Assembly: GCA_030606485.1 (NCBI GenBank)
Contig: JAUWGH010000002.1
Span: 60,001-92,000 of the forward strand
DNA length: 32,000 nucleotides
Reading direction: 5' to 3'
Origin: Promethearchaeota archaeon
GTDB taxonomy: Archaea > Asgardarchaeota > Lokiarchaeia > Sigyniarchaeales > SOKP01
A program made the translations under genes and the position numbers. The number at the start of each line of letters is the position of its first letter. The first letter of the stretch is position 1. A model generated the notes under the pieces. The model saw nothing but the letters and a program-made list of their open reading frames with translations. It ran no database searches and was not told where the DNA came from. Below are positions 14,044-16,923 of the stretch, piece by piece.

Positions 14044-15927
14044 ATGAATCATCCAAACAATAACATTAATTGCAACGACCAAAAAAATAAAAATAAATCT
14101 GGCTCAGTTAATAACGATAAGAAAGTTTTTTCGACAAAATCCTATGATCGAAGCAAAGAGCGTATTCTAATTAAGCCTAATGTTTTAAGGGGAATATTAG
14201 ATGAGATTAAGAATAGAGATCCAGATAATTTTCCATCGGATAATAAGATAAGCGATTATATCGGAACTAAAGTGAGTAGCGCACTTAGAGGTTATGCTAT
14301 GAATAAGAAGAGTTTTGAAAATCTTCAAAAAATATATAGAGCGCCAATACCACATGAAATTAAAGAACCTTGGCAAATTAAGGTTTCTCTTAACAAAAGT
14401 AAGAATCTTGCTGAAATGATTGGAATTATGCTTGGTGATGGCCATCTCAACAAAGCTGATGGTAGAATAGAAGTTGCGTTAAATGGAGTTGATGACTGGG
14501 AATATGTAGAATATGTAAATGAAATAATGAAAGATTTATTTCAAAAACCTTCTAGATTAGATTGGTTAAGGGACAGGAAGAGTACAAAAGGAAATGAGAA
14601 GGGAGTGGTGCTTCTCATATCGAGCGTTGAATTAGTAGAAGAATTAGAATCTTTAGGCTTAATACCAGGGAATAAATGTGAAAATCAAGTAGGAGTACCA
14701 GAATGGATTAAGAATTATAAGAAATTTATAATTAGATGTTTGAAGGGGTTGGTAGATACTGATGGTTGGATTGGGGTTGTAAAGCAAGACAAATCTATTA
14801 GTATTAAATTTTCAAGTTGTTCGCAACCATTAGTGGATGATTTTATACTAATGTGCAATTTATTAGACATAAGAACATCAAATTTACTGGGACCTTATAG
14901 AGCAATAGATCGGAGAAGTGGAAATGTATCAGAACAATATTTAGTTAAGATTTCTGCAAAAGACCAAGTTAAAAAATTCATTAATGCAATAAAACCCGAG
15001 AAATGGAAACTCCGATTTAATTACATTGGAACAATTTTAATATCTCTCAGTAATGATTCCAAACGCAAAAAGATTGAGTACGAGATAAAAAAGGCTTTCC
15101 TTGATATTCAAATTCAATATAGTAAGGAATATGAAGAATTTTTAGTTAATTCATGTAAAAAATATGGATATCTAATTAATAATAATACAATTGAGCAAGC
15201 TATTAATAGTGCCTTTGAGTATAAAAAAACCTATTATAATAAAGATTATGCAGCCTATTTGAAAAAACTGTTCGAAGAACTTGGAAGTACACCAAATATA
15301 ACTGATTTTCTAATACAAGAGGGAGTAAGCCCAATACCTGCTAAAAAAACAATTCGATATTATATTCAGAAATTATTTGAAGAACAGGATTATAAAATAA
15401 AATATGCGACAAACATATACGAAAAATGGTTAATGCATAATTATCCTATTTTTATTAAAAATAAGCGTGTCAAAAAATTTTCTGAAGAGGCTAAAAAGAT
15501 ATTATGTAAATGGATTTATCTAATTTTAATTGAGGAAGGGTTTATAATTAATAATTCAGAGGTAATTCAAAAATTGAAATTTTTGATAAATAATATTGAT
15601 TTTAATGAGGTAGTAGATGAATTAAAATCCGAGGAGATAATTATTGATGACGAAATGGATGATTCTTATAAAGATGTTAGAATTTTAAAATTTGATAGAT
15701 TGTCTTTTCTGCTCAATAATCAAAGATTTTCAGATTCCATTAATGATTATTTAAAAATATTAATACAATTTATACGAGAAGTGATATCTTTATCAAATTC
15801 TAATTTTAATATGTCTCTTGAGGATATTAGACGGCATATAAGAAATAAATTAAACATAAATTGGAAAAATGAGCCTTTAAGGGAGATATTACAATTATTA
15901 CCAGATAAGTTATTTTCTTTTCTTTAA
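14044..15927 (+). CDS. Free-standing double-motif LAGLIDADG (DOD-type) homing-endonuclease-family protein with long C-terminal extension
   Basis: Motif 1 LAEMIGIMLGDGHL (14407-14448) and motif 2 RCLKGLVDTDG (14734-14766), with the intervening LESLGLIPGNK...VGVPEWI block. No Hint/intein splicing ends and no extein are visible. Confidence 0.85.
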   Translation: MNHPNNNINCNDQKNKNKSGSVNNDKKVFSTKSYDRSKERILIKPNVLRGILDEIKNRDPDNFPSDNKISDYIGTKVSSALRGYAMNKKSFENLQKIYRAPIPHEIKEPWQIKVSLNKSKNLAEMIGIMLGDGHLNKADGRIEVALNGVDDWEYVEYVNEIMKDLFQKPSRLDWLRDRKSTKGNEKGVVLLISSVELVEELESLGLIPGNKCENQVGVPEWIKNYKKFIIRCLKGLVDTDGWIGVVKQDKSISIKFSSCSQPLVDDFILMCNLLDIRTSNLLGPYRAIDRRSGNVSEQYLVKISAKDQVKKFINAIKPEKWKLRFNYIGTILISLSNDSKRKKIEYEIKKAFLDIQIQYSKEYEEFLVNSCKKYGYLINNNTIEQAINSAFEYKKTYYNKDYAAYLKKLFEELGSTPNITDFLIQEGVSPIPAKKTIRYYIQKLFEEQDYKIKYATNIYEKWLMHNYPIFIKNKRVKKFSEEAKKILCKWIYLILIEEGFIINNSEVIQKLKFLINNIDFNEVVDELKSEEIIIDDEMDDSYKDVRILKFDRLSFLLNNQRFSDSINDYLKILIQFIREVISLSNSNFNMSLEDIRRHIRNKLNINWKNEPLREILQLLPDKLFSFL

Positions 15928-15994
15928 ATTCTTATTCAATATTCTAATAAATTTAGAAATTTGTAGTTTCCAATTTTCTTTTATGAAAAATATT

Positions 15995-16008
15995 CAAAAA
16001 TTATTTAA
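15995..16008 (+). promoter_or_regulatory. Possible BRE/TATA promoter for a leaderless moxR-VWA transcript
   Basis: CAAAAA-TTATTTAA ends 23 nt before ATG 16032; weak evidence because the DNA is very AT-rich. Confidence 0.3.
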
Positions 16009-16031
16009 CCTAAATTTAATATTCTTTAAAT

Positions 16032-16923
16032 ATGAGTCAAAACAGTTTCGACCAATTTATCGGAAATGTAAATACAGAGAGAATCAAATACATAGCTGAC
16101 CCTCAGTTAAGAAATATCGTAAATGTAACAATTGCGTTAGGCAGACCTTTACTTGTTAAAGGGGAACCTGGAAATAGATTCTGAAAGTTCAGAATTTACC
16201 AGAGCGGGTAAAACTCTTCTGGCTCACGCGATTTCGGAAGCATTAGGGAAACGTCTTATTGTTTGGAATGTTAAATCAACCTCTGAAGGAATAGATGGGT
16301 GTTATATGTACGACACCGTTCAAAGACTTAATGATAGTCGATTTGGTTCAAATGATCGAAATGTTAATAATATAAAGGATTATATTACTTATGGTCCTTT
16401 AGGTGAAGCTTTTGATTCTAATGAACAAGTTGTTCTCCTCATCGACGAAATAGATAAAGCTGACATAGAATTCCCAAATGACCTCTTGCAAGAATTGGAT
16501 GTAATGGAATTTTATATCAAGGAAACTAAGGAGGTTATTAAAGCAAATTATCGTCCAATTGTCATAATCACTTCAAATAATGAAAAAGAGCTACCAGATG
16601 CATTTCTGAGACGTTGTGTTTTTCATTGGATTGAATTTCCTGAGAAGGATTTTATGGGACAGATTTGTCAATTACATTATCCAAATCTAAAAAGGAATAT
16701 TTTAATGCAATGTTTAAAGCAATTTTATGCACTTCGATCGTATAAACATCTTAGAAAAAAGCCCTCAACTTCAGAATTATTAGATTGGATTGGAGTTTTA
16801 TTGAAAAGTGGAATAACTGCTGATGATTTGGAAAAGGACATTCCGTTTTTGGGAGTTCTCATTAAGAAAGAACAAGATATGGAGTATCTCTCAAAACAAG
16901 CTGGTTTTTCTGTAAAGCCATAA
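16032..16923 (+). CDS. MoxR-family AAA+ ATPase, interrupted gene: join(16032..16173,16205..16923), 286 aa after intron removal
   Basis: Exon 1 (frame 3) MSQNSFDQF...NVTIALGRPLLVKGEPG; exon 2 (frame 1) GKTLLAHAI...YMYDTVQRLNDS...LLIDEIDKADIEFPNDLL (Walker B)...ITSNNEKELPDAFLRRC. Removing 16174-16204 gives GEPGTGKT. 142+719=861 nt. Confidence 0.9.
16174..16204 (+). other. Candidate 31-nt bulge-helix-bulge-type mRNA intron inside the Walker A codons
   Basis: Central 4-bp helix CTGG(16168-71)/CCAG(16199-202); 3-nt bulges AA^A (16172-74) and AG^C (16203-05); 10-bp intron stem TAGATTCTGA/TCAGAATTTA (one G-U) with AAGT loop. Cuts after bulge nt 2 restore the frame and the Thr codon ACG. Confidence 0.85.

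Follow-up and report, generated by a model that had tools for sequence, protein, structure and literature searches.

Organization of the locus

We analyzed a 32,000-nucleotide (nt) stretch (G000:C1:60001-92000, hereafter the window) of the 3.75-Mb genome G000 of a Lokiarchaeial archaeon (Promethearchaeota). Between a thiolase gene and a moxR gene, the window contains an intact open reading frame (ORF) of 627 codons (14044..15927) for a predicted free-standing LAGLIDADG homing endonuclease. The stop codon of this gene (15927) is separated by 104 nt from the ATG of moxR (16032) and by 246 nt from the start of a 31-nt insert that interrupts moxR (16174..16204). The moxR gene is thus divided into exon 1 (16032-16173), the insert, and exon 2 (16205-16923). 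All features described here lie on the forward strand of the window. Scans of the window for tRNAs and Rfam families gave no matches.

The locus was compared with four congeners (G001, G002, G003, and G004), of which G003 is the nearest relative and is represented by an 11-kb contig. Further loci or contigs from other assemblies carry L-numbers, and sequencing runs carry X-numbers. L058 is a contig of the same species as G000 (98.6% identical), and L060/L080 belong to the Promethearchaeota metagenome-assembled genome (MAG) YT6_002 (= G159).

The moxR insert has the features of a bulge-helix-bulge intron

The insert is located between the first and the second base of the threonine codon of the Walker A motif GEPGTGKT. 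Removal of the 31 nt in silico yielded this motif and a 286-amino acid (aa) protein that is collinear with 26 orthologues. The borders of the insert can be folded into a bulge-helix-bulge (BHB) structure, in which a central 4-bp helix is formed by exonic positions 16168-16171 and intronic positions 16199-16202. The helix is flanked by 3-nt bulges at 16172-16174 and 16203-16205, and cuts after the second base of each bulge would excise exactly 31 nt. The inner helix comprises 10 bp (16175-16184 with 16189-16198). The outer helix consists of a single conserved C-G pair, indicating a relaxed BHB form. An energy-based fold of the single sequence recovered the inner hairpin as well; a pairing of the 3' intron end with exon 2 in that minimum free energy fold was rejected, as this hairpin is not conserved in other alleles.

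Nine distinct homologous alleles carry the same 31-nt intron at the same site. When they were compared, 97.8% of the cells were paired, and four pairs of the inner helix showed compensatory changes. None of 500 shuffles reached the observed pairing and covariation, and controls slid along the sequence were only 25-50% paired. Three exonic wobble positions contribute to the BHB; they were fixed in all nine intron-plus alleles, whereas the same three bases varied freely in 25 intron-less alleles (22 combinations). Genes for the splicing machinery are present in the genome, namely two EndA-domain genes (C10) and one RtcB gene (C6). Judged by covariation and frame restoration, the insert is a genuine tRNA-type (BHB) intron, and formation of the Walker A motif would need the tRNA splicing endonuclease and RtcB.

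We considered that the insert might instead be a frameshifting lesion, in which case moxR would be a pseudogene and its adjacency to the endonuclease gene would be meaningless. The weak outer helix with its single C-G pair would be in line with such a lesion. However, nine diverged alleles share the position of the insert and show compensatory changes in it, excision at the predicted cuts gives an exact reading frame and Walker A motif, and these alleles do not vary in the exonic wobble bases paired in the BHB. In addition, both moxR exons and the downstream VWA partner gene are intact and conserved. A lesion is therefore extremely improbable.

Additional searches illustrated how the intron is distributed in public data. 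When the 50-aa product of unspliced exon 1 was used as a query, 21 such mini-ORFs were found in public assemblies, and the underlying DNA yielded the nine distinct alleles described above. Scans with the intron pattern retrieved four metagenome contigs and one genome record (MAG YT6_002). In one of the metagenome matches (L078:1765-1803(-)), a 28-nt insert in the same sequence context (CCTGGAA/...CCAGAG/CGGG) lies in an unrelated reading frame; this is probably a chance match, given the 21 specified bases of the pattern and the size of the collection. Among the intron-less alleles, the Walker A codons of L031 (G010) and L033 (G020) correspond exactly to the spliced form of the intron-plus alleles (CCT GGA ACG GGN), and the 23 other intron-less alleles use other wobble bases. 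The codons of L031 and L033 could mark either precise intron loss or a preferred landing site.

The upstream gene is predicted to encode a two-motif LAGLIDADG endonuclease

The protein encoded at 14044..15927 contains two LAGLIDADG motifs that can be read directly from the sequence. Motif 1 (L122-G133; 14407..14442) includes the catalytic residue D132 (14437-14439), and motif 2 (L233-G241; 14740..14766) includes the catalytic residue D240 (14761-14763). In an alignment of 21 family members, residues L130, G131, D132, and G133 of motif 1 and residues G235, L236, D238, T239, D240, and G241 of motif 2 were invariant. The Pfam match of the ORF was borderline (LAGLIDADG_3, E value of 1e-4, 22.8 bits versus a cut-off of 22.5). 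The AlphaFold2 model had a predicted local distance difference test (pLDDT) score of 79.6, with mostly 87-98 in the nuclease core, and it showed the tandem alpha-beta-beta-alpha-beta-beta-alpha fold of such cores. Foldseek matched the model with a probability of 1.00 to I-Tsp061I, I-DmoI (template modeling score of 0.65-0.69, by target), PI-SceI, and I-AniI; PI-PfuI was also matched.

The model divides the protein into a confidently modeled helical N-terminal domain (approximately aa 40-110), the nuclease core (approximately aa 115-335), and an all-helical C-terminal domain (aa 336-627). The first 37 residues are predicted to be disordered. No Pfam match was found for the N-terminal 109 aa. 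The C-terminal domain of 290 aa matched no Pfam family and had no Atlas match, and a separate model of this domain (pLDDT of 76.5) had no fold match in the PDB. Based on the motifs and the model, the ORF encodes a monomeric two-motif LAGLIDADG endonuclease with an I-DmoI/I-Tsp061I-like fold, for which cleavage activity is predicted. With these data, the layout put forward in an earlier, sequence-only reading of the window was borne out. It had described a double-motif LAGLIDADG gene with acidic residues in both motifs, ending 104 bp before moxR on the same strand and about 250 bp from an ORF-less intron in the Walker A sequence; the two aspartates are invariant, the fold matches, the distances agree with those measured, and the intron has a covarying BHB and its removal restores the frame.

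We searched 40 related genomes (41 counting G000) for the endonuclease family. The distribution was patchy and multi-copy, with matches in 10 of the 41 genomes (including G000), often on short contigs. The gene has the attributes of a mobile gene, since it is present or absent among close relatives, is patchily distributed, and occurs in decaying copies. A scan of metagenome contigs with the endonuclease protein returned no relatives.

One paralogue with 27% identity was found elsewhere in G000 (L081; G000:C12:3764-6271, reverse strand). It encodes 835 aa, has no Pfam match, and has a thiolase gene on one side and a DUF35/OB_ChsH2_C gene on the other; the arrangement looks like an acetoacetyl-CoA thiolase operon. 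The congeners G002 and G003 have open frames with the same degree of similarity to the query (27-28% identity). In another genome (L015; G014:C84), a family member (904-2691, reverse strand) lies between two HAD-hydrolase genes (47-844 and 2990-3676, both on the forward strand), one of which has no match to the first 36 positions of the profile. These two genes may be the old and the new copy of a gene that flanks a cassette.

A single foreign tract spans the endonuclease gene and the intron

In G001, G002, and G003, an intron-less moxR gene starts after a spacer of 43 nt behind the thiolase gene. G004 also has an intron-less moxR, but with another upstream gene. The alignment of G000 with G001, G002, and G003 stops exactly after position 13628. 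The last shared bases (13618..13628) form the left junction and belong to an A/T-rich, TATA-like element of the original moxR promoter. Up to this point, G000 and G003 are 98-100% identical; between 13644 and approximately 16221, the identity drops to 72-75%, and from approximately 16231 it is again 98-100%. Over the same divergent stretch, G001 and G003 are 93-97% identical. The right switch point lies at 16230/16231, beyond which the G000 sequence is of the G003 type and unlike that of L068 and L074. Along the 11-kb G003 contig (median identity of 98%), the tract accounted for the only 100-nt segments with less than 90% identity. When G000 was compared with 32 kb of G001, the cassette was the sole large indel.

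The tract starts with a noncoding leader 5' of the endonuclease ORF (13629..14043), which is missing from G001, G002, and G003. A tblastx comparison of 13549-14350 with the upstream regions of L074, L069, and G004 revealed no coding similarity in the leader. The endonuclease gene is followed by a donor-type moxR promoter and leader (15980..16031) that is common to L068, L074, and L072a and is not found in G001-G004. Exon 1 (16032..16173) is 72-75% identical to the congeners at the nucleotide level, and its synonymous sites are saturated in comparison to G003. The right end of the tract comprises the first 26 nt of exon 2 (16205..16230), with five synonymous differences from G003. The remainder of exon 2 (16231..16923), which contains the Walker B, sensor, and arginine-finger regions, is 97-100% identical to G003 and represents the resident gene. 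We found no second exon 1 copy of the G003 type in the window, indicating that the old promoter and 5' end were replaced and not displaced.

The location of a tract with 72-75% identity inside flanks with 98-100% identity argues that the endonuclease gene, the donor-type promoter, exon 1, the intron, and the 26 nt of exon 2 almost certainly entered as one foreign block. The comparison of related genomes for co-conversion tracts, which the sequence-only reading had suggested, thus gave a single foreign tract (13629 to approximately 16230) that is missing from three congeners. The co-inheritance of endonuclease and intron that it had envisaged is shown by the presence of both in this one import.

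The arrangement is not an assembly artifact, since L058 and contigs from 20 runs of 9 studies also carry it; no RNA run with the locus was found. A contig of run X6 joins 13628 to 16053 and represents the cassette-free form. In L058 and run X13, a 109-nt deletion (13934-14042) just 5' of the endonuclease start shifts the predicted start, resulting in 651 aa instead of 627 aa. The thiolase gene was also considered as the real target of the cassette. This was rejected: the 3' end of the thiolase gene has no converted tract, there is no sign of thiolase 5' of the L074 endonuclease or of the L068 remnant (see below), and moxR is always present.

Endonuclease-moxR linkage in other lineages

The closest relative of the endonuclease outside the species is P0002 on L074, with 70% identity over the C-terminal 355 aa; the endonuclease copy in L074/L075 is 71-82% identical to the G000 copy. 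L074 has the same layout: 56 nt separate the endonuclease gene from the donor-type promoter, and exon 1, the intron, and the first part of exon 2 (to codon 118) follow. Its endonuclease gene is missing codons 1-103, and the frame is shifted ahead of motif 2. Between G000 and L074, the ratio of nonsynonymous to synonymous substitutions (dN/dS) of the endonuclease gene was 0.10-0.19 in all domains at a dS of approximately 1, showing that a working protein was maintained for a long time. In L068, an intron-plus locus with the same promoter type, a remnant of approximately 150 nt of the endonuclease 3' end is present, including the stop codon. The decay in L074 and the remnant in L068 would fit a cycle of invasion, decay, and loss. 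The known members of the moxR-linked endonuclease lineage are thus two lineages and one remnant.

L068 provides a second, less sharp case of a mosaic and of joint transfer. In the 3' part of moxR, L068 is the sister of the intron-less G004 (support of 99/94). The two are approximately 71% identical in exon 1 and approximately 88% identical further downstream. Four other sister pairs of an intron-plus and an intron-less allele (L063/G009, L062/G023, L059/G014, and L072a/G004) are 70-80% identical throughout and are too diverged to reveal tract edges.

The endonuclease gene or its remnant adjoins moxR only where the intron is present (G000/L058, L074/L075, and L068). At the 26 intron-less moxR loci compared, no family member was found beside moxR, and the search covered the 40 related genomes. 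The sequence-only reading had implied that the enzyme should not routinely accompany intron-less moxR, and in this respect the data agree with it.

The linkage data also bear on the alternative that the tract arose by ordinary recombination after gene transfer, with no break made by an endonuclease, and that the LAGLIDADG protein is inactive or domesticated, with a DNA-binding or regulatory role such as that of WhiA. WhiA was among the structural matches, the protein has large extra domains under purifying selection (including the conserved 290-aa C-terminal domain), and the 27%-identical C12 paralogue between the thiolase and DUF35 genes is kept in three congeners. Nevertheless, both catalytic aspartates are invariant across the family, unlike in WhiA. 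The patchy multi-copy distribution, the presence or absence of the gene among near-identical strains, and the decaying copies are likewise at odds with domestication, and the sole mosaic tract in 11 kb is the one that carries the gene. Altogether, we regard this alternative as improbable.

The intron occurs without the endonuclease in most lineages

The Walker A intron was detected in at least six other lineages in which no similarity to the endonuclease was found within the available 2.5-5 kb of flanking sequence (L059, L060/L080, L062, L063-65, L072a and L072b, and L076/L079). Within a set of 161 species genomes of the class, it is restricted to G000 and G159. In a tree based on MoxR residues 60-286, the intron-plus alleles were scattered and did not cluster; the intron label required seven changes, five of which were forced by well-supported branches. 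This scatter implies gain or loss by routes that leave no endonuclease. By this sequence comparison, the intron predates its linkage to the endonuclease and has been kept without the enzyme in most lineages. Since at least six lineages have no endonuclease gene nearby and the intron is scattered over the moxR tree, the intron is largely independent of the enzyme for its spread, and the dependence that characterizes collaborative homing is not seen. The co-occurrence predicted by the sequence-only reading therefore held in one direction: the enzyme stands beside intron-plus moxR only, but the intron is found in lineages with no endonuclease gene nearby, which largely corresponds to what that reading had named as evidence against itself.

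These findings weigh against a homing pair formed by endonuclease and intron, and several others do so as well. In other Lokiarchaeia, a second 31-nt moxR insert is located directly after Walker B (between DEIDKAD-IE and FPND) with no endonuclease nearby (L049 [G018], approximately 1947-1967; L076, approximately 2345-2365; L080/L060 [G159]; and L062, approximately 5460-5500). A third insert, after VQRL, is present in L060 and L062, also with no endonuclease nearby. The three endonuclease-moxR occurrences share one ancestral association and are not independent. Within the species, the dN/dS of the endonuclease gene was approximately 0.7 (from 27 differences). The endonuclease ORF is the only LAGLIDADG_3 match in the G000 genome, and the neighbors of other family members (Ras-like GTPase, ERCC4, PEMT, HAD, and TldD genes) are not obviously split. 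A general link between the family and split neighbor genes was not established, as the neighbors of seven other members gave full-length single-frame Pfam matches or no match. Finally, the right edge of the tract could simply mark the point at which usable homology resumes, and the divergence of exon 1 (25-28%) could on its own protect a cleavage site located elsewhere.

With the inserts after Walker B and VQRL, moxR is interrupted at up to three conserved motifs. On the metagenome contig L072, two inverted moxR copies are present (1-517, reverse strand, and 6001-6892, forward strand). The two copies share an identical stretch that extends from late exon 1 across the intron into exon 2, and their 5' ends and promoters differ, one promoter being of the cassette type. 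This pattern suggests gene conversion between the two copies.

Proposed mechanism of cassette transfer

In our model, a cassette (13629 to approximately 16230) would have entered the thiolase-moxR spacer by gene conversion, with the moxR gene of a related but distinct lineage as the donor. The endonuclease would cleave both strands of moxR alleles that lack the cassette; during repair, with a cassette-bearing allele as the template, all sequence from the break to the endonuclease gene would be copied. The import of a mobile homing-endonuclease cassette by gene conversion is the best overall explanation of the data, and we consider it reasonably probable. That homing was driven by the endonuclease, taken as a separate question, is likely.

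The break may have occurred at or near the Walker A codons, as proposed in the sequence-only reading. These codons are the most conserved sequence in the neighborhood, and conserved sites are favored by introns and inteins (PMC2814812). A break near Walker A is suggested because the tract ends only 26 nt past the intron site and its left edge is sharp. With a break there, the target sequence in the enzyme's own allele would be interrupted by the intron, as described for collaborative homing of F-CphI with psbA (PMC6083498) and of MobE with nrdB (PMC2790892). That the enzyme cuts where the intron is inserted and that the intron shields the allele is a tentative proposal to which we give somewhat less than even weight.

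An alternative with some merit, although we hold it to be unlikely, is homing in which the intron is a pure passenger. The cut would then lie in the old promoter, the spacer, or exon 1, and the insertion itself or the 25-28% divergence would protect the cassette-bearing allele. A break in the old promoter or in exon 1 would be equally compatible with the data, the tract has its left border within the old promoter, and exon 1 and the promoter are strongly diverged from the recipient alleles. Free-standing endonucleases of phages often acquire immunity from polymorphisms (PMC2988022), and the moxR intron is widespread without the enzyme and older than the association. On the other hand, an A/T-rich, poorly conserved spacer would be a poor target for spread between lineages. 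Moreover, the tract extends across exon 1 (142 nt, poorly matching) and the heterologous 31 nt and then stops 26 nt past the intron, and neither a copy nor a remnant of the endonuclease gene was seen beside an intron-less moxR.

Significance and comparison with known systems

Asgard archaea are the closest prokaryotic relatives of eukaryotes, and their protein genes seem to contain numerous very small introns of the tRNA type. The locus described here offers a concrete, dated, sequence-level example of how an ORF-less intron of approximately 30 nt entered an archaeal protein gene. The intron was gained within a 2.6-kb tract whose only gene is that of the homing endonuclease, in surroundings that are 98-100% identical between the genomes. 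Homing by free-standing endonucleases, known from phages and organelles, would thereby be extended to archaeal chromosomes and protein-spliced introns, and the same may hold for collaborative homing. Since most copies of the intron have no endonuclease nearby, endonuclease-mediated transfer can be at most one of several routes. If the enzyme recognizes the intron-less Walker A sequence and the intron acts as an immunity element, the enzyme and the intron of this Asgard archaeon would be collaborative-homing partners in the strict sense. No earlier mechanism would then have been shown to bring ORF-less micro-introns of the tRNA type into protein-coding genes at the level of DNA.

Several elements of the arrangement are already known: homing endonucleases with free-standing genes, phage systems in which group I introns take part in collaborative homing, and LAGLIDADG enzymes in BHB introns of archaeal rRNA genes. 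In the literature searched, BHB introns in mRNA were published only for the crenarchaeal cbf5 gene (PMC2738675), and no case was found of a free-standing LAGLIDADG gene that moves with an ORF-less BHB micro-intron of a protein gene. The cbf5 pre-mRNA of Crenarchaeota (PMC2738675) resembles moxR in having a tRNA-type intron in a protein-coding gene, with patchy gain and loss among relatives. It differs in phylum, gene, and site, and no endonuclease-linked transfer of it was described in the literature searched. In comparison to the mitochondrial mORF-type cassettes, which duplicate a gene end, the moxR cassette contains no fossil of the old gene end; the 5' end was replaced.

Two phage systems are most similar with respect to genetic arrangement: F-CphI beside the psbA group I intron of cyanophage S-PM2 (Zeng, Bonocora, and Shub 2009, as presented in PMC6083498) and MobE with the defunct I-TevIII intron in T4 nrdB (PMC2790892). 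As in these systems, a free-standing endonuclease gene adjoins a gene with an ORF-less intron in a conserved motif, and the endonuclease gene, the intron, and a flanking exon would move jointly by gene conversion. However, the moxR cassette resides on an archaeal chromosome and encodes a LAGLIDADG enzyme, whereas the phage enzymes are Endo VII-like or HNH endonucleases. The moxR intron is a 31-nt protein-spliced BHB micro-intron, unlike the self-splicing group I introns of the phages. Cleavage at the insertion site and protection by the intron were demonstrated in the phage systems and are conjectured for the moxR cassette.

The enzyme itself is most similar to the LAGLIDADG endonucleases encoded in BHB introns of archaeal rRNA genes, such as I-DmoI, I-Tsp061I, and I-PorI (PMC2602781 and PMC4496867). 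It shares with the I-DmoI type the fold, the catalytic motifs, the association with a BHB intron, and, presumably, homing by gene conversion. In contrast to that type, the endonuclease ORF is located outside the intron, 246 nt upstream, and the intron is far too short for any coding sequence. The product of the host gene is a protein and not an rRNA, and the enzyme has approximately 400 extra residues in its N- and C-terminal domains.

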